DNA of 64,000 bases from the sequence record CP054387.1; one strand, given 5' to 3'. The DNA comes from Escherichia phage CMS-2020a. Under the pieces are notes generated by a model, which ran no database searches, was not told the DNA's origin, and was given only the letters and a program-made list of their open reading frames with translations. Made by a program: the position numbers and the translations under genes. Shown in pieces: positions 22,270-61,465 of this stretch; positions within the stretch are counted from its first letter, which is position 1; every line of letters starts with the position of its first letter.

Positions 22270-22414
22270 TAGTCTACATGCAGGTGTATGAGAGCACCTG
22301 TATGTGACATTCATCACATTTTTTGAAGTACACACCTCCGGCTGAAAAAATTTCTTGATTGGCTGAACGATATTTGTAGGCTTTTCAATTGATAACTAAG
22401 GTCGGATACTGTAG

Positions 22415-22903: not shown

Positions 22904-22918
22904 TTGGATTATCATGAT

Positions 22919-24039: not shown

Positions 24040-24054
24040 TTTCTATAAGGGCAA

Positions 24055-24082
24055 TAACCGGCTAAGTCCGGTTATTATTTTA
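24055..24082 (+). terminator. rho-independent terminator
   Basis: ATAACCGGCTAAGTCCGGTTAT hairpin followed by TATTTT, after the gene ending at 24039. Confidence 0.6.
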
Positions 24083-24327
24083 CATGTCATTCATTTAATA
24101 CCTTTTCAATTCTACCCCGTATAAATATATAAGGTCGAAAGCCGGAATCAATTATTTATTTAGGGAACACCTTCGACGATCTCGCTTTTATTTCTAGGAC
24201 TTTCATCCCTGCAAAAATTTTAAAAAAATCGCTTGCAATCTTTTTTCGCATATCGATAATTGAACTCGTCGAAAGCAAACAAGCTAACGACAAATAAATT
24301 TAAATATTTACATTAAGGAATAAAATC

Positions 24328-24978
24328 ATGGCTAACATTATCATTTCTAAAAAGTCTATCATTGAAGCTGCATCTATTGTATCCGACGAGCTGCGCGAAA
24401 AAGCAGATCTGGCAACTCAAACATATAACGAACATTATAAAAATGGCACGCACACTAAAGCAGACAAAGCAAATATGCAAGCTGCGACCACTAAACTTGC
24501 TTACTTCATCAACAACGTCGTAAACGCAGTAGAAGACGAAAAATTATGCTCTGTTTTCTACTATGCGATTAAAGCAAGCAAACAAGCGCCAGAAGTATTT
24601 TTCCGTGATGCAATGACTAATAGTTATTCACTGGAAAAACTGGTTTATCTGGTTAAATCAATTAAATCTGGTAAATGCGTTTATTCCATCGCTGATATGT
24701 CTGGATCTCGTGTATTTGCTTTAATCGATATGATTAACGACGAGATCGACACGTTCACCAATGGCGCTGTTTTCGATTTAATGAATGAAGCTAAAAAAGC
24801 GTGTGAGATTAAATTGGACGCTGGCTATACTCAAGCCAACCAGTTGATCAATCTTTGCGAACGTCTTGGACTTGTTGAAAAAGTCAAAGGAGCTGGGATC
24901 GCAAAAGCTGGTACTCAGCAATATCGCTTCATTAAAAATGATTTCTACAATTATTTAGCTGACGCTTTCAAAGCGTAA
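24328..24978 (+). CDS. hypothetical protein
   Basis: 216-aa ORF with an AT-rich promoter-like region upstream. Confidence 0.4.
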   Translation: MANIIISKKSIIEAASIVSDELREKADLATQTYNEHYKNGTHTKADKANMQAATTKLAYFINNVVNAVEDEKLCSVFYYAIKASKQAPEVFFRDAMTNSYSLEKLVYLVKSIKSGKCVYSIADMSGSRVFALIDMINDEIDTFTNGAVFDLMNEAKKACEIKLDAGYTQANQLINLCERLGLVEKVKGAGIAKAGTQQYRFIKNDFYNYLADAFKA

Positions 24979-25026
24979 TTAATGGAATTAAGCGCCCATA
25001 GTGGGCGCTTTAAAGGAGCTTTAAAG

Positions 25027-25230
25027 ATGGTCAGCTATGACAAGATCCGCGCGGAATATCGCGCAAAGTATCGCGCTTATAAACTAGAATTAATCGATGA
25101 TTTGATCGCGCAACGCGACCAATTAAATTTTACGTTTTCTGATTTGCTTAACAGCAAGCGAGATTGCAAGCGCAAACGTGAATACTTACGTTTAAGCGCA
25201 TTAATCGGAAAACTTCAAAATTCTATTTAA
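25027..25230 (+). CDS. hypothetical small protein
   Basis: Start placed at ATG 25027 (RBS AAAGGAG) downstream of the hairpin at 24992-25010. Confidence 0.35.
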   Translation: MVSYDKIRAEYRAKYRAYKLELIDDLIAQRDQLNFTFSDLLNSKRDCKRKREYLRLSALIGKLQNSI

Positions 25231-25251
25231 TTTTTTTTAAGGAGCTTAATC

Positions 25252-25482
25252 ATGTTTGTTCTTATCGCTGGCGTTAACGTCCATAATGAATATTATGTTA
25301 ATCGCATCGCTGGGATCGCTGGTTACGCTGGGCGCGCAGTCGAGCTTATAGATGAAACGACGCGCAAAATTGACTTATTGAGCGACCAGGAGCGAAAAAA
25401 AGCAGACGTGAACGACGCTGATATATTTTTAATGTTAAAAGCGTTTGTCGAAATGGGATTTAAAATCAGTTTACACAAATAA
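25252..25482 (+). CDS. hypothetical small protein
   Basis: 76-aa ORF with RBS AAGGAG, followed by tandem terminators. Confidence 0.35.
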   Translation: MFVLIAGVNVHNEYYVNRIAGIAGYAGRAVELIDETTRKIDLLSDQERKKADVNDADIFLMLKAFVEMGFKISLHK

Positions 25483-25486
25483 AATC

Positions 25487-25513
25487 GAGCGCCCACTATG
25501 GGCGCTTTTTTCG
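25487..25513 (+). terminator. rho-independent terminator
   Basis: GAGCGCCCACTATGGGCGCTT hairpin followed by TTTTTC. Confidence 0.6.
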
Positions 25514-25532
25514 TTTCCAATACACCTACCAT

Positions 25533-25560
25533 AACGCGCCAATGATGGCGCGTTTTTATT
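25533..25560 (+). terminator. rho-independent terminator (second of a tandem pair)
   Basis: AACGCGCCAATGATGGCGCGTT hairpin followed by TTTATT. Confidence 0.55.
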
Positions 25561-26097
25561 GTCTTTAACTCACTCCAACAACATAAAAATAAGCGCCAAA
25601 ATAACGCCATAGACGCGCTTTTATATCCTTGTCAGTACATACCCATTACTTAACACATTAACGCGCTTAAAACACGTTATATTGCGCTATAGAGTATGGT
25701 TAATCATTGGCTTTTAGTCTTGCTATGTGATCCGCGTTTATTTGTCGGCGCGGATCGGCATTTTGTTTTGTTCCGTATCCGCTCGCGTATTATGTGCGCG
25801 TGATTTTTCACATAATCACACCACTTAATCACGTATGCGATTACGCTACGAAAGAAATCTGGATGTCTCAGGCGACGAAAGTCATCATAATTTTCCCCGC
25901 TCACCTGTCCGACAACCGCTGGTTGGATTCCACCAGCTTCCCGATGTTTTTTCTACATAAAGGCGAATGCAGCCGTTTCCCGAAAAAATCCTGGCCGTTC
26001 CCCGTCGGTTCATGAATACGTTCCTCGCCGTTTCTGAAAATTTCCCTGCGGCATCTGGTGGCTATAGAGAAAGGGCCGTTACTGGCCCTCTTCTCAG

Positions 26098-41492: not shown

Positions 41493-43178
41493 TCATTTAA
41501 CGCGTTTGAAAACGTATACGCTGACTGTGATCCCTGTGTCTTCAAACTCGTTGGTAAACGACTTCCCTCTGGCATAAACGTAATTATCCATCGTCATCCA
41601 GTCCAGTATTGGCGCAGTGCCCGGCAATACTGCTACAAGACGCCCGCCGACTTTCAGATGCCCCAGCGCAGCCAGCGTGTGCTCTCTATGACGACCAAGC
41701 GAGTACGGCGGGTTCATAACGATTTTGTCGAACTGATAACCTGCGTTGTCCTCAGACCACTTTATGAAGTCGCAGCAAATCGTGTTCGTATACCCTTTTC
41801 CACGCAGGATATCAGCGAAGAGAGGTGCGATTTCTATGCAGGTAACATCTTCCAGATCGGCGTTAATATAGGCCAGAAGATCCCCACGTCCGGCTTGAGG
41901 CTCCAACAGCTTCTCACCAGGCTTCAATTCAGTGGCTCTGGCAACGTACTCAGCAATCAAGCGTGGGGTAGGGTAGAACTGGTGTGATTTTGTATCCGGT
42001 ATTAAACCGGTAGCCACAATCGTATTTAGCGTATGGCCGATCTCATACGGGAACTGCCAGTGCTTTTTCTCCTGCACGCCGCCAATGAAGCTCAGTGTGC
42101 GCTCAAGCTCTTCCACCTGCGACTTCTGGAGAGCTGAATCAGAGAAGTACCATACGCCTTTGTCTTTGCTCAATCGCCCGTCACGAAGCGCAGTGCGAAC
42201 CGGCACGGAGATCGTCTTCTGGATTAACCCGAACTGCTTTGGTGCCCGTGTTTTTGGCGCAGTTCGGCATGGCGCGGGGATTGCAGCAGGCATACTGTAA
42301 GCCAGCACCTCATTCAACTTCCAGGCCACGTCAGGATGTATTTCAAAGTGAACGTTGCCGTTCTTGAACATCTTCACGCGCATCAGATTTCCATCGACGT
42401 TCATCCAGTCACCGGTCTGGCAGTCGTTTGCCCGATACGCAGCTGATAGCACCTCAGCAGTGCGGTTGATGGTAATAAATTCTTTGTGCGCGAAGAAATG
42501 AAGCAAGACACGCAGATCGTCGATGTAGTCCTCTTTGCGATAGTTCACGCTAACGCTGTCACGCCAGAAATCAGAAATGCAGTCAGCGATTATCAGACGC
42601 TCGCTGAAACCGTTTGTCTTATTTGTCTTGTGCGCAGGACTCAGCGCCTTAAACAAGCCATACACGCGCTCAGAGAGATATTTGTGCCTGTCATTCAGCA
42701 AATTAAGCATCGTTGGTATGACCGTTTCTGCTTTGAACTCCGGTACACCAACGAACTCTTTAACCTTCATCTGATAGCCGGTTCTGTCAGTTTTGATGAC
42801 TTCCTGCTTGCCCTCGATAAATAGCTCACGCCACTCGTCGCGACGGGAAGCTGGCATGATCAGCAGAACGTTAGTCATATCCGTAACCTTCCTCCAGTAC
42901 TCGGCCCAAATATTCTGTTTCACCCATTCCAGATCGACGTTATCCAGCCAGACTCGATTCAAACGTGAGCGATCTTCATCTGGTCGGTGGTTTAGTCGAA
43001 GCAGGCGATTAATCATGTTGTGGCGTTCATCGCCATAAACGAAGTCGTGTACCTGATACATGAAGGAGATCTCTTTCTCGCACTCGGCCACAATTTCGTG
43101 GATGACGTTCATTTCCTGTCGATAGTCGATAGCAGTGTTTGAGCTGGCATCGCCCATGATGGAAAGGGCTGTATTCAT
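41493..43178 (-). CDS. DNA N6-adenine methyltransferase with a large N-terminal domain of unknown function
   Basis: C-terminal half has SAM motif LLEPQAGRGD followed by catalytic VMNPPYS; about 400 N-terminal residues unassigned. Confidence 0.55.
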   Translation of the reverse strand: MNTALSIMGDASSNTAIDYRQEMNVIHEIVAECEKEISFMYQVHDFVYGDERHNMINRLLRLNHRPDEDRSRLNRVWLDNVDLEWVKQNIWAEYWRKVTDMTNVLLIMPASRRDEWRELFIEGKQEVIKTDRTGYQMKVKEFVGVPEFKAETVIPTMLNLLNDRHKYLSERVYGLFKALSPAHKTNKTNGFSERLIIADCISDFWRDSVSVNYRKEDYIDDLRVLLHFFAHKEFITINRTAEVLSAAYRANDCQTGDWMNVDGNLMRVKMFKNGNVHFEIHPDVAWKLNEVLAYSMPAAIPAPCRTAPKTRAPKQFGLIQKTISVPVRTALRDGRLSKDKGVWYFSDSALQKSQVEELERTLSFIGGVQEKKHWQFPYEIGHTLNTIVATGLIPDTKSHQFYPTPRLIAEYVARATELKPGEKLLEPQAGRGDLLAYINADLEDVTCIEIAPLFADILRGKGYTNTICCDFIKWSEDNAGYQFDKIVMNPPYSLGRHREHTLAALGHLKVGGRLVAVLPGTAPILDWMTMDNYVYARGKSFTNEFEDTGITVSVYVFKRVK

Positions 43179-48055: not shown

Positions 48056-48649
48056 CTAAGCAGCCTTCTTTGATGGTCTTTTTTTCCTGATCACATTCGC
48101 AGGATCATACCCTCCCAGACTTTTCATGACGTCCAAAGGGATCTTGCTTATAGAGTGCCCAGCGTCCTGACAGAATCCTCGAAAAACAACGAGCATACTG
48201 CCACCGGGGTTGATGTTTACTTCTACCTGACCCAAATTGACGTCAGGCTCGACAAACGCTACGCGGCCACCAGACAGAATAATCGTCTCATTCGCATACT
48301 CTGTTGCACGCTCATACCACTTTGTATCGAGGGATTGAGGAATTAGCATCACTGTAGTAACTCCGCGAGCCTGCTCACGTATAGCAGCATCAATCCAGGG
48401 GGAGATTTTGGAGTAGGGTGGATTGAGGAAGGCAATTGTACCTGGCTGTCCCCATTCAGATTTCAAAGCATCACGCTCAATGCCTATGAAATTAGGCAGC
48501 TTTGCGTTGTCCTTGTTGCAGGCAACGTCAACATCAAATGTCACTCCAAGATAACGTTGAATGGCAGAAAACAGCCAATCAGGTGTTCTCCAGAGGTCAC
48601 GAAGAGAGTTGTCGCGCTTTCGCTGTTTGATTTTTTCGGCTGCAATCAT
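48056..48649 (-). CDS. DNA N6-adenine methyltransferase (phage Dam-type)
   Basis: 197 aa; FLNPPYSKISPW catalytic motif; architecture of small phage Dam methylases. Confidence 0.7.
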   Translation of the reverse strand: MIAAEKIKQRKRDNSLRDLWRTPDWLFSAIQRYLGVTFDVDVACNKDNAKLPNFIGIERDALKSEWGQPGTIAFLNPPYSKISPWIDAAIREQARGVTTVMLIPQSLDTKWYERATEYANETIILSGGRVAFVEPDVNLGQVEVNINPGGSMLVVFRGFCQDAGHSISKIPLDVMKSLGGYDPANVIRKKRPSKKAA

Positions 48650-48831: not shown

Positions 48832-49641
48832 TCATCCAATAGTGTACTCCGCGACAAACTTCTTAACGATCGGTGATTCTTCGTTCAATGTTAGATTTCC
48901 ACCGTCTCTAACGGCAATTCCTGTAGCTGGAAATACAGCCATCATTTGCCCAGCCTGAGTTGACGCAGTGTTAAGCGGATACGGTTTTTCTGGATTGCTC
49001 ATTAAAGCAATCTTAATACTATTACTTGTAGCCTTCTTTTCTGTAAGAAGGTGTCTCATGGAAATTACCGTGTAAACACTAATATCTGGACCTCCGCTAA
49101 ACCAATTAAGAAGGTTTAATATCTTATCCTTCGCTTTGACAGGCGCGTTTTCGTAAGCGTCTAAGAAAATATCTTTTTCTAAGCCTGCTTTATTGAAAAA
49201 CGAATCATCTTTATCACTTAAAGTAAAACTAGGACCTCTTGCAGCACGAGTTTTTTTATTTGTATTGCTATCATTTGACTGTTGAACTTTTAATTCATCA
49301 TTAACCTCAACACAATCTTCAACCTCAATGATCCCCAACTGTTCTGGCTCATTTTCGGCAGCTTCACCACTTTCAGCGTTAATTACGTTTATAGGCTCAT
49401 GCGCTAACTCCAACTCATTTAAAGCAGAGCTGAAATCACCTGCTTTTTCTTCATTGAACAGTTCTTCGGCAACATCATCAGAACTCATGGCTACGCCAGC
49501 ATCGATGCCGAGAAGCAGATCGTCAATATCATCAGTATTTTCAACCTGTGCAGCTTTTTTTACTGGTTCATCAAGTGATTGCAACATGGCTGTCAGCTCA
49601 TCCAGATCATCATTTGTCATTACATTTTCAACCGAACTCAT
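48832..49641 (-). CDS. hypothetical highly acidic protein
   Basis: 269 aa with a long Asp/Glu-rich N-terminal half. Confidence 0.4.
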   Translation of the reverse strand: MSSVENVMTNDDLDELTAMLQSLDEPVKKAAQVENTDDIDDLLLGIDAGVAMSSDDVAEELFNEEKAGDFSSALNELELAHEPINVINAESGEAAENEPEQLGIIEVEDCVEVNDELKVQQSNDSNTNKKTRAARGPSFTLSDKDDSFFNKAGLEKDIFLDAYENAPVKAKDKILNLLNWFSGGPDISVYTVISMRHLLTEKKATSNSIKIALMSNPEKPYPLNTASTQAGQMMAVFPATGIAVRDGGNLTLNEESPIVKKFVAEYTIG

Positions 49642-49801
49642 GTAAGTCTCCTTCTGTTTAGTTGCATTTGCGTTTCGATGGCTACATTTTGACTAAACCT
49701 ATCAGGCGGAAAAGTATTAAATACAGGCAGGAAATGATTGAAAGGCGACTGTTCTTTAAAAGAAAGCCTGCTTCAAACTCTCTTTAAAGCAGGCTTTTGT
49801 T

Positions 49802-50359
49802 TTACACAATTTCAGAGGGTAATTTAAAAAATCCGTATTTATTACGTGCCTTAAAGAAGCATTGCATCATTAAGTTTGTGTCATATAAGGCACTATGTGC
49901 TTTGGCATGATCGTATATAAAGCCAAGAGAGAAGGCCAATTCTTCAAGGCGAGGACGTTTACCGTCTTCTGTGGCCCACAATCCCGATAACATAGTATCT
50001 ATAACGGGAACGTCTGGCAGTCTTACTCCATACCCTGAAAACTCGTGTCTAATAAATGGTATATCAAACGCTTCGCCGTTATGAGCAACCCACGCACTAC
50101 ATGCCTCCATATAAGCGCCAATTTCGCTAGCATGATTTGACAACAAAGGTTCAGCTGCGAGCTGTTCTAATGAAATGCCATGAACGGCTTGAGCTTTCGG
50201 ATCTATGTTTCTGCGAGGGTTAAAACGCATCTCCAGACTATCAATATGTCTCTGTGTCTCCAGTTCATAGCGGGTAATTGCGATTTCAATAATTTTATGA
50301 CCAGCAAGGAAATCCAGTCCCGTAGACTCGATATCGATGCCTGCAACAATCGTTGTCAT
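49802..50359 (-). CDS. DnaQ-like 3'-5' exonuclease (DEDDh)
   Basis: Exo I GIDIESTG, Exo II HNGEAFDIPF, Exo III HSALYD. Confidence 0.75.
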   Translation of the reverse strand: MTTIVAGIDIESTGLDFLAGHKIIEIAITRYELETQRHIDSLEMRFNPRRNIDPKAQAVHGISLEQLAAEPLLSNHASEIGAYMEACSAWVAHNGEAFDIPFIRHEFSGYGVRLPDVPVIDTMLSGLWATEDGKRPRLEELAFSLGFIYDHAKAHSALYDTNLMMQCFFKARNKYGFFKLPSEIV

Positions 50360-50368
50360 CAGAACTCC

Positions 50369-50788
50369 TTACAACTTCTTAGCGCCCTTAAGTAGTGCGC
50401 TACGTACAAATTGAGCCGCTTTTTTCAAAGTTTCTTCACTGGTTTCACAGACAATCGGATCTTTCCACTTACCTGACGCAGTGTTGAGAATATTGATTTG
50501 GTTGCTATCCAGACAAACAGAGATATAAAGCACCGTGCCACCAGCCAGCATCAAATGCATAGGAAACAGAGGCTTTTTACTGTCTTCACTGAACTGAGAC
50601 ATGGCGATGTTAATGGCTTCACCTACTTGTGCGCCAACAAGCCCCTGCGCAGTTTCGAATATGGCACGAATAGCCAGACGAGCCTCTCGATCGCTCATAA
50701 GCGACCGGGAATGTTCGTCCGCTACACGAATCAAAGCCTCTGTTGTTTTCCGATCCAGTTCATCTTCAAGCAACATTTCACTAAACAT
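50369..50788 (-). CDS. hypothetical protein
   Basis: 139-aa ORF. Confidence 0.4.
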   Translation of the reverse strand: MFSEMLLEDELDRKTTEALIRVADEHSRSLMSDREARLAIRAIFETAQGLVGAQVGEAINIAMSQFSEDSKKPLFPMHLMLAGGTVLYISVCLDSNQINILNTASGKWKDPIVCETSEETLKKAAQFVRSALLKGAKKL

Positions 50789-50849
50789 TTTTTATCCTTA
50801 ACCCATTTTGAGAGTTTTATTGTCGCAATGTCGAAGAGGCGAACAATTT

Positions 50850-51494
50850 CTAATGAACGGTCACTCGACCACAGAACCGGTTTTCTATCTTTTCTACAGC
50901 GTTATCTAGCATTCTCATCACTGATCTGGCTCTTGCTTCAACCGTGCGATATCGGTTGGAAACGACGAAGGTTTGCAGATCCCCCCTTTGCGGATGCAGG
51001 TGAATTTTTGTCAGTTCCCCGCACATCAACGCATCAATACGAGCGACATACAGACGGTCTAATGATGCTCGTTGTGATCGCAAGTAATCTCGCTCTGAGA
51101 GAGCGACTCCCGGGCGTAGGCCAGCAATGGCGTTAAAGTTTGAAATAGCAGTTTTGTGGCAAAACTTTTCGATATCGAGGGCTAACTCAATACATCGATC
51201 TTCATTGGTATGGCCGACCAAATCCAACGTGTAGGCCATAACATCAGCAGGTGTGCGATCGATAACAAAGCCTTCAACACCACGCGTAAGTAGCTCTATA
51301 TGCTTTGCGATTTCCATTTGAATCTGAAGCCGCTCATATAGAGGCATAGACTCACCTACTCGAACACCGAGTCGGCTCATCAAACTTCCGACACCAGCAT
51401 CCACGTAAGGGATTCCGTAATGTTTGTCGATATATTTTGCCAGGGTTGTTTTCCCACTGCCCTGAGCACCAGTGATCCCAATCCGGTAATCCAT
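50850..51494 (-). CDS. P-loop kinase, putative (deoxy)nucleoside monophosphate kinase
   Basis: Walker A GITGAQGSGKTTLAKY; sits within the nucleotide-metabolism block. Confidence 0.5.
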   Translation of the reverse strand: MDYRIGITGAQGSGKTTLAKYIDKHYGIPYVDAGVGSLMSRLGVRVGESMPLYERLQIQMEIAKHIELLTRGVEGFVIDRTPADVMAYTLDLVGHTNEDRCIELALDIEKFCHKTAISNFNAIAGLRPGVALSERDYLRSQRASLDRLYVARIDALMCGELTKIHLHPQRGDLQTFVVSNRYRTVEARARSVMRMLDNAVEKIENRFCGRVTVH

Positions 51495-51970
51495 TACGAC
51501 CTTCTGTATACGATCTGCGAAAAGCCAGGCTCTTCCTCGCTGGCTCGTTGGGTAAAAACTGTTTCAACAGGCACAAAGCCTAAATTACGCATCATGCTTG
51601 CCGGGAAGAATGCATCGGCGTTTGGCACATCAACGCCGATGTGGGAGAGCCAAATCTCTTCAACATGCGGCATGAATAGCGAGTAAATTTGTTCCCCGCC
51701 AATCACCCACACAGGCTCTGGTAATCGCAACACATCATCCACACCAGCAGGGTAGAATCCATTTGGTACAAAGCCATGAGAGCGCGTCAAAACGAGGTTA
51801 TGACGCTCTGGAAGAGGGCGTTTGAGACTTTCCATCGTTTTACGCCCCATAACGACAGTGGCGTTTTTGGTGAGTCTCTTAAATAGCTTCAGATCGGTAG
51901 AACAACGCCAGGGCAGTTCGTTCGCTATGCCGATCTCATAGTTACGGCCAACAGCAGCTATCATCTTCAT
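51494..51970 (-). CDS. dihydrofolate reductase
   Basis: 158 aa; IAAVGRNYEIGIANELPW...VVMGRKTMESL matches DHFR signatures. Confidence 0.8.
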   Translation of the reverse strand: MKMIAAVGRNYEIGIANELPWRCSTDLKLFKRLTKNATVVMGRKTMESLKRPLPERHNLVLTRSHGFVPNGFYPAGVDDVLRLPEPVWVIGGEQIYSLFMPHVEEIWLSHIGVDVPNADAFFPASMMRNLGFVPVETVFTQRASEEEPGFSQIVYRRS

Positions 51971-52380
51971 TTGCTCACCTCATAGATGACCGGTCTATGA
52001 TGAGAGTCAGCTAAAGCGGCACGGAGTCGAGGATCGTGCACCAGCGCAGCGATAAGCAGATCGCCTTTATGCTCCGCTAATGTGCGCTTAATATGCTTCT
52101 CATAACTGGTGCCATTCGGTACGAGATGAAGCCAGTCGTAATCAACGCCAAAATCTTTCAGCCATCGTTTAGTGGGCGCTTCAAGAGTTTCAGAGCGGCT
52201 ACTGATAAGCACCACTTCAGCCCCTGAGCGAGCAAAACCACGCAACATACGGCTGGTGGGGAAAATGAGTTCATCACCGGCAATGAGCTGGCCTGCATCC
52301 GTGTCAGGTACAGATTTACGATGGCTGGTATTTGCCAGCACACCTTCAATTTCGCATAAGACATACATACCTCTTGCCAT
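51967..52380 (-). CDS. hypothetical protein
   Basis: Start at ATG 52380 just after the ThyA stop; ORF-track start 52428 overlaps ThyA. Confidence 0.35.
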   Translation of the reverse strand: MARGMYVLCEIEGVLANTSHRKSVPDTDAGQLIAGDELIFPTSRMLRGFARSGAEVVLISSRSETLEAPTKRWLKDFGVDYDWLHLVPNGTSYEKHIKRTLAEHKGDLLIAALVHDPRLRAALADSHHRPVIYEVSK

Positions 52381-52381
52381 A

Positions 52382-53485
52382 TCACACCGCCACTGGAACC
52401 TTGATCCACGGTAGAGGGTCATAGCCAAGAATCAGAATATCGTCCCATTTGAAATCATCCAGCTCAGACCATTCATGAGGGAAAATAACGACCGGATCTG
52501 AATGCTCTGGAGCCTGTCGTTTCATTAGCTCACACACACCTTCCATGTGGTTGTTGTACAAATGCACGTCAAAGCCAAAATGCACAAATGCACCGGCCAT
52601 GTGACCCGTAATCTTCGCGAGAAAATGAGTGAGAATGCCATAGCCAGCAATATTGAATGGCATACCAACAAAAGTGTCTACGCTACGCTGTACGAGGCAG
52701 GAGTTGAGGATGCGTTTGGGGATTCCAAGTTCATCCAGTTCAGTTTCAGTAACACTGCCGTCCATCTCCAGATCGTATAGCATCTTGGTGTAGATAGACT
52801 CATAACCGAAGCGACTGTGTTGAAGACCAATGTCAGTTGCCATCGTTAAACGGGTTTCAAAATCAAGCTCACGACTCCACAAAGAGAAGACAAAGTGGCA
52901 AGGTGGCAGTTTCATATCCTCAAGCTCGCCTACGTTCCATGCGTTAAGCATGATGCGACGATCGGTAGGGTTCGTGCGCAGTGTGTCGACAATACGCTGT
53001 AGCTGATCGATTTCACGGGACAGCACTACGCGATCTTCACTGATACCCAGGTATCCCTCGACTTTGTACCCGCGTTCACGGAAAGTAGCGATCTTGCTCA
53101 GATATTCACTATGGCTCACGATGCGGGTATCTTCCCATCGACGCCACTGCTTACCGTAAACCGGCCCCAAATCGCCATTCTCATCGGCCCATGCATCCCA
53201 AATCTTAACGCCGTTATCCTTAAGAAATTGGATGTTGCCCGTGCCTTTCAGATACCACTCAAGTTCGACAAGCAGTGGCTTAAGATTTACCGCCTTTCCA
53301 GAAATAAGCGGCACAGTCCCACCAGTAAGCATGTAGTAAGAGGGAACGTAGCAGGTGCTTAAAGTACCAGTGCCTGTGCGATCATCAGTCTGCACGCCGC
53401 TTTTAAGCACCGTCTCAATAACTTTTGCATACGATGCGTTTGTTACCTGACCGTTCGTATGCTCACGATTCAAAAGGAGTGACAT
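52382..53485 (-). CDS. thymidylate synthase family protein (ThyA-like, with insertions)
   Basis: DRTGTGTLS, IWDAWAD, GDLGPVYGKQWRRW, LPPCHF (catalytic Cys), VQRSVDTFVGMPFNIAGY; 367 aa is longer than canonical ThyA. Confidence 0.7.
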   Translation of the reverse strand: MSLLLNREHTNGQVTNASYAKVIETVLKSGVQTDDRTGTGTLSTCYVPSYYMLTGGTVPLISGKAVNLKPLLVELEWYLKGTGNIQFLKDNGVKIWDAWADENGDLGPVYGKQWRRWEDTRIVSHSEYLSKIATFRERGYKVEGYLGISEDRVVLSREIDQLQRIVDTLRTNPTDRRIMLNAWNVGELEDMKLPPCHFVFSLWSRELDFETRLTMATDIGLQHSRFGYESIYTKMLYDLEMDGSVTETELDELGIPKRILNSCLVQRSVDTFVGMPFNIAGYGILTHFLAKITGHMAGAFVHFGFDVHLYNNHMEGVCELMKRQAPEHSDPVVIFPHEWSELDDFKWDDILILGYDPLPWIKVPVAV

Positions 53486-53652
53486 AAAACCTCACGAAGA
53501 TAAGTAATCAATTATTTATCACGTGAGTTTACATTCATTGATAAAACAAGACCAGATAGATAAAAAATGGTGGCCATAGGCCACCAAAAAGAATAGTCGT
53601 TCCAGAGTTTTATACGCAAATCAAATATACATTAGTAGATAATCACCTACAA

Positions 53653-54522
53653 TTATTTTTTGATCATTCCGTACATTGCTGAGGCTTTAGCTTGCTCAAC
53701 AAAGGAGGATAAATCGACATCACTATAGGTTGGAGACTTCAGAATCTTTCCATCGGAAATTCGAAAACCGATCATCTTATCGGTGCCATCAGCATGGCGA
53801 AATCCCAGGTCTGAAGAGTCGTATTTGCAGTTGGCCACAGCCTGGCGACGTTCCTCTACATCAGCAGGCCATAATTTTGTCATGTTAGACCGATGAATTT
53901 CGCCAACCAGCTCGACTACATTGATACCGAGGAAATCAGCCAGTCGATAGGTCATCATGCACGCCACATAGATTTTGTTCATGACACGGCGCAGTTCCTG
54001 AATCAGCTCAGAATCCTTAACAGTCTTGTTCTCAAGTTTATCTGCCAGCTCTTCGAGCATACATGACGCCTCACGAGCTTCCTGAAATGGCATTGCCATA
54101 TCATCGAAAACAGTGTTACCGGGCACAAAAATTGTCTGCATAAAGCGATCAATGCTCTGTTCCTGCGTGTAATAGGTCATGCCGGTAGAAATACCACCTT
54201 TGATGGCGACCATCGTACCAACACCAACGTATAAAAAGTCGGCCATTGCATCCAGCAGTTGCTCAATATCCCCATTCATTGCAGCTGGAATACCTTCCAC
54301 TACAGCTTCTTCATGAATCAGGCTTGCACGGAGACGAAGCAGCTCTGGTGTCGGCATAACGCGTCTCGGATGCTGGAAGAGTTCATGAAACTGATCGACC
54401 ATCTTGTAAATACTTTCAGTAGCTACACCATGACCTTCATGCAACTCATATGGTTCTGGCTTAAATCCAATGAGACGATCGGTGGCAAGTTTCAGGTGGT
54501 CAGTCAGTTTGGTAAAGTTCAT
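53653..54522 (-). CDS. hypothetical protein, possibly MazG/HisE-like nucleotide pyrophosphohydrolase
   Basis: All-alpha, EE-rich segments; start at ATG 54522 (RBS AAGGA); weak call. Confidence 0.3.
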   Translation of the reverse strand: MNFTKLTDHLKLATDRLIGFKPEPYELHEGHGVATESIYKMVDQFHELFQHPRRVMPTPELLRLRASLIHEEAVVEGIPAAMNGDIEQLLDAMADFLYVGVGTMVAIKGGISTGMTYYTQEQSIDRFMQTIFVPGNTVFDDMAMPFQEAREASCMLEELADKLENKTVKDSELIQELRRVMNKIYVACMMTYRLADFLGINVVELVGEIHRSNMTKLWPADVEERRQAVANCKYDSSDLGFRHADGTDKMIGFRISDGKILKSPTYSDVDLSSFVEQAKASAMYGMIKK

Positions 54523-54599
54523 GCTAGTTTTGTTCCTTCTTAATTCTTGTGATCCATTGTGGCCCAGCGTTGCCAGGTCACATAATGCTTTGTATCGGT

Positions 54600-55742
54600 T
54601 CACAGGTCTGCAAACTGGCTTAGAGAAGCCTTGTCCACGGTAGAATCGATCTGACCTACCAGATATGTGCTTTGCTCTGCCTCTTGTGGTGCAATTTGCA
54701 GTGTGTCGGTTAACAACCACTTGTTCATCCAGACCAGCGGATCGGTGGTAACCTCTGGAAATAAAGCCTTCAGGCCAAGACGATTCATAGCCAGATTGGT
54801 GCGGTATTTTACATAGGTCTTCAAAATATCCGCGTTTAAACCAATCATCGAACCGTCTTTGAAGAGATACTCGGCCCAGTTCATTTCTTGTTCGGCGACT
54901 GATTTCATGGTGTCGTAAATGACGTTTTCTTCATCAGCAGCAATCTCTTTCCACAATAAACCTTCGCGACCGGTACGCATGAAGCGGATCATGCGTTCAG
55001 TTCCTTCGCAATGCAGAGCTTCATCACGGGCAATAAAGCGCATAATTTTGGTGTTACCCTCAAGCAACTTCCGTTCGCCAAAGGCAAACGTACATGCAAA
55101 ACTTACATAGAAACGGATCGCCTCAAGCGCATTAATGGACACCAACGTGCGGAAAAGCTGACGGTGCAAAGGATATGGCTCCCAGCCATATTCATTTACG
55201 TACAGACGCTCAAATTCCTTCTCGCCTAACGACTGGCGCTCGCAGGTCATCCCATAAAGCCTGTCATATTCAGCAGAGATACTGATCGCTCGGTTGATGA
55301 TTTCTTCATCCGTAACAATACCGTCAAAAACAATGCTCGGATCGTCCACCATGCCACGAATAATGTGGGTGTAGCTGCGGCTATGGATAGTCTCAGAGAA
55401 AGACCATGTTTCAACCCACGTTTCCAGTTCAGGAATAGAGATAAGCGGCAGCAGCGTTGCATTTGGGCTACGTCCCTGAACTGAATCGAGTAACGTTTGA
55501 TAACGGAGATTGCTCAGAAAAATGTGACGTTCGTGGTCCCGCAGCTTCGTGTTGAAGTCGATACGATCGCTCGAAATATCAACTTCTTCCGGCCGCCAGA
55601 AGAAAGACAATTGACGTTCAATCAACTTTTCAAAATCACGGTATTTTTGCTGATCGTAACGTGCCACGTTGACAGATTGTCCGAGGAACATAGGCTCTTT
55701 GGTTGCATCATTAGCACCCAAACGGAACGTTGAATATGACAT
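54600..55742 (-). CDS. nrdB: ribonucleotide reductase class Ia beta subunit
   Basis: Very close to recalled E. coli NrdB (MSYSTFRL...RPEEVD...[15 protein letters not shown]...[13 protein letters not shown]...ARDEALH); start at ATG 55742. Confidence 0.9.
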
Positions 55743-55847
55743 GTGTTTTTCCTTTTGCTTTTTGATGTGTTTAAACAAGTTGTTATCCTATTTGTTTAAA
55801 CAAGGCTTACAAATCAAAGAGAAGGTGGGGATACACCCCACCATATG

Positions 55848-58163
55848 TCAGATTTTGCAGGCTCCGTCGCACTCATCTTCTGGCTCGACGGCTACAGCTT
55901 GCGTCAGTGGATTCTGCGGTTCGTCGTCATCACGCTTTCCTGCCCCATCTCTGGTGTTGTGGTAGTAAAGCGTTTTAACTCCCATCTTGTAGGCGAGAAG
56001 CAAATCTGACAGTAGCGTCATCATTGGGACTTTATCGCCTTCAAAGCGAGAAGGGTCATAGTTGGTATTGGCCGAAATAGCCTGGTCAAAGAACTTCTGG
56101 ATGATCGCCACCTTTGTCAGATAGCCGCGGTTGTCCGGCATATCCCACAGGTATTCATACTGTTCCTTCAGTTTTTCAATCTCAGGCACGACCATCTTAA
56201 CGATGCCGTCCTTAGAAGATTTCACCGACACCGGTCCACGAGGCGGTTCGATGCCGTTTGTGGAATTAGTGATCTGGCTGGAAGTCTCGCATGGCATTTG
56301 TGCCGTCAGTGTGGAGTTGCGAAGACCGTATTTTGCAATACGTTCACGCAGTTCTTCCCACGGCATCTTTAACTCAAAGTTGGTTTCGCCACTTTCGTCT
56401 AATGAAGAACGGTAATGGTCGATCGGCAACTGACCAATTGCGTACTTGGTCTGCTCAAACCAGTCACACTCACCTTTTGCTTCAGCAAGTTGGCAGCTGG
56501 CATCAAGAAGGTAATACTGGATAGCTTCGAACGTTTCATGCACCAGTTTATTACCAGCGGTATCAGAATAACGAATGCCATTCTTTGCCAGGTAATAAGC
56601 AAAGTTGGTTACACCGATCCCCAGGCTACGACGAGCTTTGGCAGGCACTTCGGCTGCCTCCATCGGATAGTCTTGATAATCCAGTAACGAATCCAGTGCA
56701 GCAACGGCATAGAACGCCACCTCTTTAAGAGACTCCAGTGAACGGATGGCTCCGAGGTTAAAAGCGGATAAAGTGCATAGCGCGATCTCACCGTTCGGGT
56801 CGTCGGTAAATGCCAGTGGACGGGTAGGTAGGGTGATCTCCATACACAGGTTTGACTGGCGGACAGGTGCAAGAGCAGGAATGAAAGCGCCATGCTCATT
56901 AATATGATCGACGTTCGCAATATAAATTCGGCCCGTGGACGCTCGTTCCTGCATCAGAGATGAGAACAGCTCAATGGCAGGTACTGACTTCTTGCGAATT
57001 GAATCATCGGCTTCGTATTTATGGTACAGCTTTTCAAACAGCTCCTGGTCTGTGAAGAAGGCTTCGTACATATCAGGCACATCATGCGGGCTGAACAGAG
57101 TGATGTTCTCGCTTCTGACGAGTCGACGGTACATTAGACGGTTACTCATGACGCCGTAATCAAGATGGCGAACGCGGTTTTCATCAATACCACGGTTATT
57201 TTTCACCACCAGCAGACTTTCAACTTCAAGATGCCAGATCGGGTAAAACGCTGTTGCTGCGCCACCACGAACACCACCTTGCGAACAAGATTTAACAGCC
57301 GTCTGGAAATGCTTCAGGAATGGAATAACTCCGGTATGGGTGGCTTCACCATTGCGGATCTCGCTGCCCAGCGCACGGATACGGCCAAAACCAATACCAA
57401 TTCCAGCACGACGTGAAACGTAGTCGATAATTGCGGCTGAAGCTGCACTAATCCCTTTCAGACTATCGCCAGACTCAATCAGCACACAACTGGAGAACTG
57501 ACGGGTTGGAGTACGGACGCCGGCCATGATTGGTGTGGGCAGAGACAGTTTGAACGTACTTGTAACGTCATAGAAACCTTTGACCATCTCCATACGTGTT
57601 TTGCCAGCGCAGTCGTCTTCCCAATTCTGGAACAGACACATGCCTACCAGCATATAGATATGTTGCGGCCCCTCATGAATCTCACCAGTAACACGGTTTT
57701 GAACGAGGTATTTGCTTTGCAACTGCACCGTAGCTGCATAGCCAAAAAGATCGTCACGTTTCGGCTTAATGTAATTACCGAGTTCTTCGATCTCTTCAAA
57801 CGAATAATGTGTCAGCAAATCCTTGTCATAAACGCCCTTGTTAACGTTCTTGACAATGTGTTGGTAGAAGTTCGGATAGTCGTAACGACCGAAGGCATCT
57901 TTGCGGATTTTAAAAATGTTCAGGCGGGCAGCCACCTGTGAGTAATTTGGTGCTTCTGGTGAGATCAAATCAGCGGCAGATTTAACCAAAGCCTCATGCA
58001 ACTGGCTGGTGGTCATCCCATCAAAAATGCTGGCCGCAGCTCCCATTGCTACAGCGGATGCGCTTACACCACGAATGCCTTCTACGCCATACATTACGAC
58101 GCGGTTGTATTTTTCTTCGGATAACGGCTCTGTTTGGCCGTTACGTTTTACGATGCTTATCAT
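55848..58163 (-). CDS. nrdA: ribonucleotide reductase class Ia alpha subunit
   Basis: 771 aa; SLPTPIMAGVRTPTRQFSSCVLIE and AVKSCSQGGVRGGAATAFYPIWHLEVESLLV match NrdA active-site regions; C-terminal Cys pair. Confidence 0.9.
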   Translation of the reverse strand: MISIVKRNGQTEPLSEEKYNRVVMYGVEGIRGVSASAVAMGAAASIFDGMTTSQLHEALVKSAADLISPEAPNYSQVAARLNIFKIRKDAFGRYDYPNFYQHIVKNVNKGVYDKDLLTHYSFEEIEELGNYIKPKRDDLFGYAATVQLQSKYLVQNRVTGEIHEGPQHIYMLVGMCLFQNWEDDCAGKTRMEMVKGFYDVTSTFKLSLPTPIMAGVRTPTRQFSSCVLIESGDSLKGISAASAAIIDYVSRRAGIGIGFGRIRALGSEIRNGEATHTGVIPFLKHFQTAVKSCSQGGVRGGAATAFYPIWHLEVESLLVVKNNRGIDENRVRHLDYGVMSNRLMYRRLVRSENITLFSPHDVPDMYEAFFTDQELFEKLYHKYEADDSIRKKSVPAIELFSSLMQERASTGRIYIANVDHINEHGAFIPALAPVRQSNLCMEITLPTRPLAFTDDPNGEIALCTLSAFNLGAIRSLESLKEVAFYAVAALDSLLDYQDYPMEAAEVPAKARRSLGIGVTNFAYYLAKNGIRYSDTAGNKLVHETFEAIQYYLLDASCQLAEAKGECDWFEQTKYAIGQLPIDHYRSSLDESGETNFELKMPWEELRERIAKYGLRNSTLTAQMPCETSSQITNSTNGIEPPRGPVSVKSSKDGIVKMVVPEIEKLKEQYEYLWDMPDNRGYLTKVAIIQKFFDQAISANTNYDPSRFEGDKVPMMTLLSDLLLAYKMGVKTLYYHNTRDGAGKRDDDEPQNPLTQAVAVEPEDECDGACKI

Positions 58164-58236
58164 GTATCACCAAATAAAGAGGGCCACTAAATATAGTGGC
58201 CCATGTTAATAGATAAGCACTTACCTATCAATGAAA

Positions 58237-58806
58237 TCAAATGAGAGACTTAAGAACATCGCGCACCTGGCGGAACTGATCTGTTTGCATACCGGTATGG
58301 ATGGCAGCCACCGCATCAGCCAAATGTTCGTTTTTGTTCACGAGAACATCCTGTCCAGATTGCTTACGACGCAGCCACGGTGCTTTAGAGTGTTTTTTCG
58401 TAGCCCACTGGATAATCTCTTCTTTCGATGTAGTAAGTTTATTGCCGACAAAATGCTTGATTTCGTTTGGAGTAACCTGGATCAATGGCTTATCCACACA
58501 CGCAAGTACACCGATACAAATACCGTAAGACGTCTGCGAACGAGAGTTTTGGCTCCCAACCGGTAGCTCACAAAAAACCATATTTGCCTTATCAATGATT
58601 GGCTTCGCAACACGCCATATTTCACTGGCTCGGCGCAGATCGTCACTGTTCACACGAACGGTCTTTTTGTTACTCCCCGCTTTAGTCTCAACAAGAGTAA
58701 GGTCGTGAATCTCAAGTTCGTCCGTTTCAAGGTCTAAAGTGCCCACAGCAAGCCCAAAGTTGCTCATTGAGGGATCAACACCAACTACGCTGATTTTTTT
58801 ACTCAT
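58237..58806 (-). CDS. RuvC-like Holliday junction resolvase (putative)
   Basis: N-terminal ISVVGVDPSMSNFGLAVG resembles RuvC-fold nucleases; acidic residues downstream. Confidence 0.4.
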   Translation of the reverse strand: MSKKISVVGVDPSMSNFGLAVGTLDLETDELEIHDLTLVETKAGSNKKTVRVNSDDLRRASEIWRVAKPIIDKANMVFCELPVGSQNSRSQTSYGICIGVLACVDKPLIQVTPNEIKHFVGNKLTTSKEEIIQWATKKHSKAPWLRRKQSGQDVLVNKNEHLADAVAAIHTGMQTDQFRQVRDVLKSLI

Positions 58807-58815
58807 ATAGTCTCC

Positions 58816-59559
58816 TTACCATGTTCCCCATATAGGGTTTTCCAATAATCTCGCCTCCAACGAATTGGTTACTATTGCCGTTTGCAACGTTGGTTGGGGA
58901 GAGTTTGCAAAGTCTGAATACTCATTTTCCTGCGTGACACGTTTATCTACGGCATGTTTAACGCCACTTGCTATGAAATGACGCATGATGCCCAACAGCC
59001 TCCGACTGTCTGCACTATCGTTTGCTAAAACATGCGGGAGCTGAAGTTCGATTTCTACCATTTCTCCATACTTACCAACAAACTGTAGTTTGTCCGCACT
59101 GTACTTTTTATCCCTCCTTTGGATAAGGAAACCAGTAAAAGCATCACCTGGCGATGCCAAACTATCCACCCGCTTATTGGCAAGTCGAATAAGGTTGGTG
59201 AAAGCCATACAGTGATGCGCACCCATTCCCCCAAAGAACCCTTCGCTATTAATGTTAAGATCTTCATTTTCATGGGATGCAATAAACCCAGGCCCGACGT
59301 TGGGAAGATATCCCCCCTCAACAAAAGGATTAATCAGGATCGGCGCAATACATCCAGGTGGTAGTGATTTCAAACTTTGCATCAATGGCGTCTCGGATAT
59401 TAGACCAAGCAACGCGGCAAATTGTACTCCGTCAATATTGTTGCTGCCCCACAGAATACGTGGAGCCGCACCATTGGAAGTATGCCCATTGATCAGTTTT
59501 ATCGACTGCATCACTGCAAATACCTGCAAAAACTGCGAGCGGCTTAATTTAAACGACAT
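58816..59559 (-). CDS. hypothetical protein
   Basis: 247-aa ORF between SbcC-like and RuvC-like genes. Confidence 0.4.
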   Translation of the reverse strand: MSFKLSRSQFLQVFAVMQSIKLINGHTSNGAAPRILWGSNNIDGVQFAALLGLISETPLMQSLKSLPPGCIAPILINPFVEGGYLPNVGPGFIASHENEDLNINSEGFFGGMGAHHCMAFTNLIRLANKRVDSLASPGDAFTGFLIQRRDKKYSADKLQFVGKYGEMVEIELQLPHVLANDSADSRRLLGIMRHFIASGVKHAVDKRVTQENEYSDFANSPQPTLQTAIVTNSLEARLLENPIWGTW

Positions 59560-61465
59560 AGCTGCGCCCCTCTTTAACTTCCAGCGTAATAGTTTCCCGG
59601 AACCATGACTTCATCTCTTTATGGGAGATAATCAGCACAGTACCTCGCTCGCGAGCTTTGGACTCCAGAATACCCATGAGGCGTTCAAGACCGGCTGTAT
59701 CGAGTGCATCGTCAATTTCGTCGCCGATAAACAAATCGATGTTTTTACTCGCCCGGTTACTAACCAGATCCTGCAATGCCAAAGAACACGCAATGCGAAC
59801 CTTCCGCTTCTCACCACCAGAGAGGGTCTGGAACGACTTACTTGAACCTTTCTTCTGCACACTAATGTTGAATTTGTCGCGATACTCACCTTTTTTGGTG
59901 ACATCCATCGTCGACCACTCAGCAGTAATATTCCCGTCAGACAACGTATTGAGATACTCGGCAGTGCGTGTATTCAGGAAAGGCGTAACAGACGTCAAAA
60001 TATGAGAACGCACCCCGGCAGGAGAGTAGACCTGACGAGCTTTTTCCAATAGCAACGTTTGTTCCTGAATAGCCTTCAACTCATCTTTTAAGGACTTGAA
60101 GGTAGACTTACTGGATACCAGGTTATCTTCGTGTCTGGCGATAAGAGCAATAAACGGATTAATCTCTTTTGATATACGATCGACCTCAGTACGAGCACGA
60201 GTCACAAGAGACTCAATAGCAACAATCTCCTTCTCACGATGACGCAAAGATGAGAGTTGTTTCGTAAGCTCTTCAATCCGGGCAATGATAGCCGTTACAT
60301 CAGGTGTCGTTTTAACAAGGGCAGACTCAATGCTTAACGCTTTCTCAAGATTCGTTTTGTGTTTAGCCATTGCCTCTGCAAGTGTCTTCGCCTGACCAAT
60401 TTCCTGACGTGCTTGTTCAATGAAATTCTCCTTCACCGTTGATAGATCTTCTTCGCAGTAGGCTTTGCCACAAGTAGGGCATGGTGATCCCACTTTAGTA
60501 CCAACCTCTTCTGCTTTGGTCTTAAAATTACGCGCGCGGTTCATTGCATCAGCCTGACTATTTTCTGTAGCTTTGATGCTTGCCCGAATATCAGTTATCG
60601 CACCACGAACTTTGAGCAACTTGGCGTCATGTTCTTCTTTTGAGGCTAACTTTTTGCGCTCACTTTCGATTGCCTTCTCGGTATCACGGATCTGTTCGGG
60701 AAGAGTGCGGATCTCAAGTTCAACTTCCGTTAACTCAACTTCGGCACTTGCCAGCCCAGCCAGGGCATCGTCATAACGTTTAGAACGCTCTTGTTCCCAT
60801 GATTCAGAGGAGGCTTTCGCGGACTCAATTTCTGACTGTGTTGCCTCAATGGTCGAGATTGTCGACTCCAATTTGGTTTTAACCACATCCATACGTGCGG
60901 CAGCTGCATTAGCTCGCTCACGAGCAATAGCGTAGGCGCGTGTCAGTCTGTCAACGCCAGCGGCTTCTTCTACGATGGTTTTGAGGTTTTTGTCGGACAT
61001 TCCAGGTAAATCTGGCATAGCTTCTTGGCTCGCATAGATGGAAGCCATGAAAACCTCTTTAGATGCACCGATCAGACGCTCGACGAACTCTTGCGTCAGC
61101 GCATCTTTGCCTTTCGTCATATCGCCGTCTTCACCACGAACGATAAGCCGATTTTTGAACTCTTTGTGTTTACGGTGACGAATGATCGCATATCTCTTGC
61201 CTTCATCCTCGATGGTTACTGCAACACGACAGTTCTTTTCATGGTCGGTAGACAACACATCGTCACCCTTCACACCATGAGCTGTTTCGCCATAAAGACA
61301 CCACATCAGGCTATTCATTAGCGTTGACTTTCCAGAGCCATTACTTGATGCGGAACTATCATCACTATTAACACCCTGAATGAGCACTAAACCACGCTGA
61401 TCTAACTCGACCTCCGCGCTAGCGATAGCCATAAAATTCTCAACCTGGAGCTTTAAAAACTTCAT
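59549..61465 (-). CDS. SbcC/Rad50-like recombination ATPase
   Basis: Walker A NGSGKSTLMNSL, central coiled coil, signature LSGGEKRKVRIACSLAL, Walker B LFIGDEIDDALD. Confidence 0.8.
   Translation of the reverse strand: MKFLKLQVENFMAIASAEVELDQRGLVLIQGVNSDDSSASSNGSGKSTLMNSLMWCLYGETAHGVKGDDVLSTDHEKNCRVAVTIEDEGKRYAIIRHRKHKEFKNRLIVRGEDGDMTKGKDALTQEFVERLIGASKEVFMASIYASQEAMPDLPGMSDKNLKTIVEEAAGVDRLTRAYAIARERANAAAARMDVVKTKLESTISTIEATQSEIESAKASSESWEQERSKRYDDALAGLASAEVELTEVELEIRTLPEQIRDTEKAIESERKKLASKEEHDAKLLKVRGAITDIRASIKATENSQADAMNRARNFKTKAEEVGTKVGSPCPTCGKAYCEEDLSTVKENFIEQARQEIGQAKTLAEAMAKHKTNLEKALSIESALVKTTPDVTAIIARIEELTKQLSSLRHREKEIVAIESLVTRARTEVDRISKEINPFIALIARHEDNLVSSKSTFKSLKDELKAIQEQTLLLEKARQVYSPAGVRSHILTSVTPFLNTRTAEYLNTLSDGNITAEWSTMDVTKKGEYRDKFNISVQKKGSSKSFQTLSGGEKRKVRIACSLALQDLVSNRASKNIDLFIGDEIDDALDTAGLERLMGILESKARERGTVLIISHKEMKSWFRETITLEVKEGRSYVV

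Follow-up and report, generated by a model that had tools for sequence, protein, structure and literature searches.

A probable deoxynucleotide-supply module with a long thymidylate synthase in an SSU5-like phage-plasmid of Escherichia coli

Does an unusually long ThyA-like protein encoded by a phage point to modified bases in its DNA, or is it a thymidylate synthase (TS) with surface additions? The question is raised by a 64,000-nucleotide stretch of Escherichia phage CMS-2020a (sequence record CP054387.1; the whole stretch is called the window below, and it covers ~60% of the element, ~40% lying outside it). Seven co-oriented minus-strand genes occupy 7.3 kb of it at positions 50850-58163 and encode NrdA, NrdB, a MazG-like protein, ThyA, a HAD-like protein, dihydrofolate reductase (DHFR) and a P-loop kinase-like protein (Table 1). 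The original prediction, made from the sequence alone, had taken the altered architecture of ThyA as a possible sign of a hydroxymethylase and of modified DNA. It is instead most likely, with a probability that we put at about 0.9, that the block serves an SSU5-like temperate phage-plasmid of E. coli as its deoxynucleotide-supply module and that its ThyA is a bona fide synthase.

The open reading frames (ORFs) named in the original prediction are all present on the minus strand where it had placed them, and its gene identifications agree with the scores of the family profiles; the gene it overlooked is the seventh, a HAD-like ORF of 137 amino acids (aa) that separates thyA from dfr at 52380..51967. 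The identities of NrdA, NrdB, ThyA and DHFR are established by sequence, fold and genomic context. NrdA scores 1298 bits with the NCBIfam class Ia alpha equivalog NF006578 (cutoff 813) and aligns end to end with E. coli R1 (2r1r; 1054 bits), and NrdB shows 60% identity with E. coli R2 over 377 columns. The start of nrdB was taken from the SSU5 annotation (1143 nucleotides), the mechanical ORF opening upstream at a TTG at 55778. By these profile matches the two subunits form, at equivalog level, a class Ia ribonucleotide reductase. That NrdAB are strikingly close to the enterobacterial class Ia enzymes, as originally proposed, holds in a moderate sense, in that both are orthologue-like (R2 at 60%, R1 end to end), but they are not recent host copies.

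The block aligns over essentially its full length with Escherichia phage PhiR41_1 (99.3% nucleotide identity), Escherichia phage Cyrano (98.6%) and Salmonella phage SSU5 (76.5%). Gene order and annotations are identical in the three records and read NrdA, NrdB, nucleotide pyrophosphohydrolase, thymidylate synthase, hypothetical protein, dihydrofolate reductase and AAA/ATP-binding protein; the functions proposed for the block are therefore already in public databases, and the block is known and ordinary. SSU5 is the type member of a well-known phage-plasmid group (PMC7969092), and Cyrano has been described as a phage-plasmid of E. coli LF82.

Taken together, the seven genes would carry ribonucleotides all the way to thymidine nucleotides as a self-contained route, which presumably operates during lytic replication of the phage-plasmid. 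In such a route NrdAB would reduce ribonucleoside diphosphates, and the MazG-like protein would most likely convert deoxyuridine triphosphate (dUTP) or another non-canonical deoxynucleoside triphosphate (dNTP) to the monophosphate, either supplying deoxyuridine monophosphate (dUMP) or cleaning the pool. ThyA would then turn dUMP and methylene-tetrahydrofolate into thymidine monophosphate (dTMP) and dihydrofolate, the coupled DfrA51-type DHFR would regenerate tetrahydrofolate, and the kinase-like protein would probably phosphorylate dTMP or other deoxynucleoside monophosphates (dNMPs). The block would account for a boost in the supply of dNTPs, especially thymidine triphosphate (dTTP), in SSU5-type phage-plasmids.

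The assignment of ThyA was examined through profiles, alignment and predicted fold. ThyA scores 222.7 bits with the TIGR03284 equivalog (cutoff 108.35); the narrower PRK01827 sub-models score under their cutoffs, as expected because of the two insertions. Its identity with E. coli ThyA is 45%, and the alignment falls into three blocks, residues 18-118, 156-203 and 261-367 of the window protein matching residues 3-102, 106-153 and 160-264 of the E. coli enzyme, which leaves 103 extra residues, assigned to 17 aa that extend the N-terminus, to residues 119-155 (insertion 1) and to residues 204-258 (insertion 2). An AlphaFold2 (AF2) model built on 46 homologues, all of them database hits, is confident throughout (predicted local distance difference test, pLDDT, 94.6; predicted template modelling score, pTM, 0.92). 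In a Foldseek search the model is superposed on many E. coli TS structures with a template modelling (TM) score of 0.94 when normalised to the target (E = 1e-30) and 0.68 when normalised to the query, and the insertion modules are absent from every solved TS that was matched.

The dUMP-binding and catalytic residues are kept throughout. In window and E. coli numbering respectively, these are R36 = R21, E74 = E58, W96/W99 = W80/W83, Y110 = Y94, R176/R177 = R126/R127, L193 = L143, C196-H197 = C146-H147, R267/S268/D270 = R166/S167/D169, N278 = N177 and H308/Y310 = H207/Y209, and the C-terminus KVPVAV corresponds to KAPVAI in E. coli. The phosphate-binding arginines R36, R176, R177 and R267 are invariant in two ThyA alignments, the pair R126'/R127' being donated across the dimer in E. 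coli. In TS enzymology, E58, W80, W83, Y94, L143, D169, H207, Y209 and the carboxylate of the C-terminal P-V-A-(I/V) are elements of the folate site and of hydride transfer. The alignment to E. coli ThyA thus upholds the view that the protein has all catalytic motifs, the PCH cysteine among them, together with large insertions. In a metagenomic association study, the two positions that best told TS homologues of modified phage contigs from those of unmodified ones were 177 and 147 (PMC8670742); the equivalents in the window ThyA are Asn and His, the unmodified type. On sequence and model, it is very probable that the 367-aa protein is a true thymidylate synthase that makes dTMP.

The partner gene dfr gives evidence of a different kind. 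It lies two genes downstream of thyA within a string of four translationally coupled genes (thyA-HAD-dfr-kinase, with the junctions TGAtATG, ATGA and TAATG), and its product scores 334.1 bits with the NCBIfam model trim_DfrA51 (cutoff 322) and is 89% identical to SSU5 DfrA51. The SSU5 protein is active in E. coli, where its expression confers resistance to trimethoprim (PMC12217456), a phenotype that belongs to the SSU5 protein and not to that of the window. A thymidylate synthase oxidises its folate to dihydrofolate and needs DHFR, while a hydroxymethylase, which releases tetrahydrofolate, has no such need (PMC4528723); the co-occurrence of TS and DHFR across jumbo phages has been explained by the requirement of the synthase (PMC7824862). 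The coupled dfr therefore fits a synthase, because only a true synthase needs DHFR. A ThyA that yields dihydrofolate also has partial backing from the coupled DfrA51-type DHFR, whose SSU5 orthologue is active. As a side observation, the element would be flagged as a dfrA51 carrier by an antimicrobial-resistance pipeline.

What remains of mild interest is the pair of insertions, which is under selection and marks a broad lineage of phage ThyAs. In the AF2 model, insertion 1 is predicted by DSSP to form a beta strand, two short helices and a beta hairpin, and insertion 2 a three-helix module (helices 209-225, 231-242 and 247-253). In this model they are two folded surface modules, at a loop and at a hairpin turn of a canonical core, with no catalytic residue replaced, an outcome that the original prediction had itself allowed for on its sequence side. 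Between the window and SSU5, the proportions of nonsynonymous (pN) and synonymous (pS) differences are 0.035 and 0.588 in insertion 1, 0.129 and 0.855 in insertion 2, and 0.056 and 0.762 in the ThyA core, synonymous sites being near saturation (pS 0.59-0.86). Because pN is low against a nearly saturated pS, both insertions are under purifying selection and are not decaying junk. Insertion 2 was also considered as a mobile domain borrowed from elsewhere. When it was searched alone against 1.84 billion representative proteins, only its own fragment and two spurious repeat-like matches were found, and a borrowed domain is thus unsupported.

Both insertions are found at the same positions in ThyAs of 315-354 aa with ~40% identity on phage-like metagenomic contigs of 104-356 kb, and also in the ThyAs of Erwinia jumbo phage Derbicus (gp110) and Phikzvirus PA_ZH1. 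The edges carry shared motifs, DTRxV..RG(Y/F) in insertion 1 and (S/T)REL..R and LD..(I/V/A)P.R in insertion 2 (in its longer form LD..IP.R.L). The fold matches in BFVD with query-normalised TM of 0.83-0.87 are likewise long ThyA-like proteins. The PA_ZH1 protein (L011:295-1761; 488 aa) has a third insertion of ~110 aa directly after the W83 equivalent, at the position of the classic Lactobacillus casei TS insert. Insertion 1 was compared with that 50-residue insert as well, and the identification was rejected: the L. casei site lies between W83 and Y94, and insertion 1 follows W101. By sequence comparison, a lineage of phage ThyAs that spans SSU5-like phage-plasmids and several jumbo phages has long carried these insertions under selection. 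No description of this two-insertion architecture turned up in literature searches.

Such conservation could be explained if the enzyme were a normal synthase to which the insertions give a lineage-specific second role, by docking to DHFR, to the HAD-like protein or to a dNTP complex, or by escape from a host factor, which would make the block more than ordinary. Both insertions fold confidently in the model, are under purifying selection, and are placed alike, with conserved edge motifs, in elements as far apart as SSU5-like ones and phiKZ-type phages; they occur in no solved TS (query-normalised TM only 0.68), and the gene between thyA and dfr encodes a HAD-like protein that is catalytically odd. 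However, any partner is hypothetical, the long ThyAs of jumbo phages are not accompanied by conserved HAD-like and MazG-like neighbours, and insertion 2 has no match outside this ThyA. Lineage-specific surface inserts also occur in other TSs, such as the L. casei and eukaryotic enzymes, where they are not known to have a function. On balance, a second role is possible but unlikely. For the insertions themselves, contacts between subunits or with partner proteins are our best guess. For the phage-specific long-ThyA lineage that the two insertions would define across SSU5-like phage-plasmids, phiKZ-type phages and other jumbo phages, we regard it as doubtful that the added modules have a function of their own; candidate functions would be to join ThyA, DHFR and further phage enzymes in a complex for dNTP synthesis, or to make thymidylate synthesis unresponsive to host regulation or defence. 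That the insertions open the active site to a non-thymine product is much less likely.

A conserved partnership between the long MazG-like protein and the long ThyA was likewise considered, and it was rejected by comparison: what the MazG-like proteins encoded near ThyA in the 356-kb contig and in Derbicus have in common with the window protein is a generic MazG core or nothing. The window protein matches phrog_671 'nucleotide pyrophosphohydrolase' (E = 1e-47) and gives a weak split alignment with Deinococcus DR2231 (residues 51-104 and 189-217). It is about twice the usual length, a DR2231-like core being split by ~85 aa (~105-188) and followed by ~70 extra C-terminal residues.

A very different reading sees a dUMP hydroxymethylase in the long ThyA and an SPO1-like thymidine-replacement pathway in the block, so that virion DNA would contain 5-hydroxymethyluracil (5-hmU) or a derivative; dTTPase/dUTPase activity would then fall to the MazG-like protein, dTMPase activity to the HAD-like protein and the phosphorylation of 5-hydroxymethyldeoxyuridine (5-hmdU) monophosphate to the P-loop protein. 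Known phage hydroxymethylases are indeed long ThyA homologues (SPO1 gp29, 383 aa; Kuttervirus, 346 aa; Yuavirus, 351 aa). We compared the window ThyA with four references: T4 gp42, SPO1 gp29, and the gp29 homologues of Kuttervirus Maynard and Yuavirus Lydia. SPO1 gp29 is an established dUMP hydroxymethylase, and the Kuttervirus and Yuavirus proteins are assigned by annotation or context; that of Lydia is annotated as a deoxyuridylate hydroxymethyltransferase and adjoins a 5-hmdU DNA kinase gene. By tblastn, gp29-like proteins are encoded by phages of the Ackermannviridae, Kuttervirus among them, and by Yuavirus phages, the two groups to which ViI and M6 belong. The thymidine hypermodifications of ViI and M6 derive from 5-hmdU (PMC8989533).

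The three dUMP hydroxymethylases resemble the window ThyA in superfamily, in the catalytic Cys, in the equivalents of Glu58, Tyr94 and Arg166/Ser167/Asp169, and in length (~350-380 aa). In contrast to the 45% identity with E. coli ThyA, however, the window protein is only 19-23% identical to them, and phrog_5131 gives it 63 bits vs 456 bits for gp29. They have P-C-N where the window ThyA has P-C-H, an 'SDDG' segment where it has the W80/W83 motif WADENGDLGP, and no C-terminal PVA(I/V), whereas it ends in the canonical TS C-terminus. Their length comes from a C-terminal helical extension of ~110-130 aa, which the window ThyA lacks, its extra length being internal and N-terminal; and they have neither insertion 1 nor insertion 2. 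They also have no partner DHFR, and the DHFR coupled to ThyA in the block would be needless to a hydroxymethylase (PMC4528723). T4 gp42 (246 aa) shares the superfamily and phrog_160 with the window ThyA, at ~22-23% identity (27% over 75 residues in a separate alignment). It has M-C-T for P-C-H and Asp for Asn at 177, and it lacks both His147 and the insertions. PHROGs do not tell synthases from hydroxymethylases, T4 gp42 sitting in the same phrog_160 as ThyA, and PHROG names were for this reason not taken as evidence of function. At every position that separates synthases from hydroxymethylases, the window ThyA has the synthase state, so that the alignment with ThyA and with dCMP and dUMP hydroxymethylases comes out as synthase type throughout.

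The neighbouring genes likewise fit this replacement pathway poorly. The HAD-like family is found mainly on SSU5-like contigs of ~100-115 kb; the window protein scores 22.6 bits with PF25109 HAD_PNKP, under the cutoff of 27.6, and matches the Pnkp1 phosphatase domain 4xrp at E = 3.8e-5 with CEIEGVL aligned to CDLDGTL. Its motif I reads C-E-I-(E/D)-G-V-L, and the nucleophile position is Glu10, invariant in 11/11 homologues, instead of Asp. By its sequence it is probably not a standard phosphatase, and with Glu for the motif I nucleophile it cannot easily be a dTMPase. The kinase-like protein has the Walker A motif GAQGSGKT and a confident AF2 model (pLDDT 89.2), whose best fold matches are deoxyadenosine kinase, NadR, thymidylate kinases and deoxynucleoside kinase (dNK), with query-normalised TM mostly 0.5-0.6; the specific NCBIfam kinase models all score far under their cutoffs. 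It shows no similarity to the 5-hmdU DNA kinase (5-HMUDK) or to Nmad5.

Among 41 non-structural ORFs of the window, Pfam scans gave no match to a 5-HMUDK, Nmad, aGPT-Pplase, glycosyltransferase, TET/JBP or transglycosylase, and also none to a dCMP deaminase or an amino-acid transferase of hypermodification; the only modification-related matches were a Dam-type methylase and a DUF4942 protein. The SSU5 annotation contains no hypermodification genes either. From sequence, N6-methyladenine (6mA) is the only DNA modification clearly encoded in the window. Outside this element, phiKZ virion DNA is susceptible to common restriction enzymes and, in vitro, to Cas9 (bioRxiv 10.1101/370791). This fits unmodified DNA and may serve as weak circumstantial support by analogy, the ThyA compared here being from PA_ZH1 and not from phiKZ itself. 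Given the insertion modules, the residues, the DHFR and the lack of hypermodification genes in these searches, altered ThyA architecture is not supported as a sign of a hydroxymethylase or of modified DNA; base modification through this ThyA appears very unlikely, and the replacement pathway as a whole, with the roles it gives to the neighbouring genes, highly improbable. Action on dCMP, as a methylase or hydroxymethylase giving 5-methylcytosine or 5-hydroxymethylcytosine DNA in T-even style, would be hardly credible at all: the superfamily is common to both and T4 gp42 shares phrog_160, but the specificity position is Asn278 (E. coli N177) and not Asp (PMC8670742), the gp42 match is confined to the 75 residues mentioned, and the Pfam scans of the window found no glucosyltransferase or carbamoyltransferase.

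Several points weigh against the synthase interpretation. The MazG-like, HAD-like and kinase-like neighbours can be read as thymidine-replacement parts, as in SPO1 (PMC8989533). The sequence rules that distinguish hydride transfer from hydration rest on a handful of characterised enzymes, all from outside this ThyA lineage. The phiKZ restriction data do not strictly exclude 5-hmU. The large size (37 and 55 aa) and the conservation of the two insertions call for an explanation. Finally, the window is limited to the ~60% of the element given above, and 19 of its short ORFs fell outside the Pfam scans.

The arrangement of the genes offers hints on expression. A terminator-like hairpin between the MazG-like gene and thyA (Table 1) suggests, from sequence, two transcription units, nrdA-nrdB-mazG and thyA-HAD-dfr-kinase. 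Two further GC-rich hairpins with T-runs, also matched by consensus only, were observed on the minus strand, one just upstream of the nrdA start (58181-58202), which could terminate an upstream operon, and one just past the nrdA stop (55824-55842), which could be an nrdA/nrdB attenuator. The terminator count equals expectation, and the hairpin positions serve as hints only; a promoter scan gave fewer matches than in shuffled sequence, and Rfam at a permissive threshold gave no match in 49000-60000.

Other genes of the window are also listed in Table 1. The divergent metG and apbC genes look like a captured chromosomal segment; both are annotated in PhiR41_1 too and are absent from the SSU5 annotation. 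The FljA-type gene lies inside a low-GC stretch at ~22000-26000 (GC 0.38-0.39), and through its product the phage-plasmid might influence host flagellin expression.

Table 1. Features of the nucleotide-metabolism block and of other parts of the window
Feature	Position	Strand	Evidence or remark
nrdA, class Ia alpha subunit, 771 aa, N-terminal ATP-cone	55848..58163	-	Pfam ATP-cone (PF03477), Ribonuc_red_lgN, lgC
nrdB, class Ia beta subunit, 380 aa from MSYSTF	54600..55742	-	NCBIfam NF006576, 608.7 bits vs cutoff 346
MazG/DR2231-like all-alpha NTP pyrophosphohydrolase, 289 aa from MNFTKL	53653..54522	-	PF01503 PRA-PH, 34.8 bits vs 21.3
Terminator-like GC hairpin and T-run	53568..53586	-	TGGTGGCCTATGGCCACCA then TTTTTTATCT; between MazG-like gene and thyA; consensus match only
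thyA, classical ThyA-type thymidylate synthase (probable), 367 aa	52382..53485	-	PF00303, 266.7 bits vs 24.3
ThyA insertion 1, residues 119-155, 37 aa	53021..53131	-	Gap vs E. coli ThyA; replaces short loop at E. coli ~102-106
ThyA insertion 2, residues 204-258, 55 aa	52712..52876	-	In beta-hairpin turn after catalytic-Cys strand, E. coli 154-159
Small HAD-like protein, 137 aa	51967..52380	-	phrog_5387, E = 3.8e-89; start 1 nucleotide past thyA stop
dfr, DfrA51-type dihydrofolate reductase, 158 aa	51494..51970	-	PF00186, E = 2.9e-34; ATGA overlap with HAD-like stop
P-loop (deoxy)nucleoside/nucleotide kinase-like protein, 214 aa	50850..51494	-	AAA_28, 38.3 bits vs 27; TAATG overlap with dfr stop
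Phage N6-adenine methyltransferase	48056-48649	-	TIGR01712, 113.6 bits; Pfam Dam
561-aa ORF	41493-43178	-	Matches SSU5 DNA methyltransferase gene by position and length
Full-length methionyl-tRNA synthetase (metG)	31322-33484	-	NF001100, 1018 bits
ApbC/Mrp iron-sulfur carrier	33513-34613	+	NF008669, 759 bits; divergent from metG
FljA-type phase-1 flagellin repressor, 174 aa	23515-24039	+	Pfam Flag1_repress, 267 bits, E = 8.8e-80

Set beside known systems, the length of ThyA alone is no sign of modified DNA; the features diagnostic of a synthase are His147, Asn177, the W80/W83 motif, the C-terminal PVA(I/V) and a partner DHFR. With classical ThyA (E. coli, PDB 1tys/2tsc; PF00303, TIGR03284) the window protein shares the core fold, the active-site residues, the C-terminal PVA(V/I) and the DHFR partner gene, and it differs in the 103 extra residues of the extension and the two insertions. 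With the jumbo-phage ThyAs (Derbicus, PA_ZH1 and uncultured contigs; 37-40% identity) it has both insertions in common, but the insertion interiors are poorly conserved and the genomic neighbours are not the same; the ThyA of Pseudomonas jumbo phage 201phi2-1 is alike by fold only (query-normalised TM 0.83; best viral match 0.87). The nucleotide-metabolism module of SSU5/pHCM2-type phage-plasmids (SSU5_078-084, including dfrA51, already recognised as a trimethoprim-resistance determinant) has the same seven genes in the same order, with amino-acid identities of 87% for ThyA, 89% for DHFR and 87% for the HAD-like protein. The E. coli element differs from SSU5 in cargo elsewhere, such as metG-apbC and the FljA-like repressor, and between the two modules themselves there is no substantive difference.

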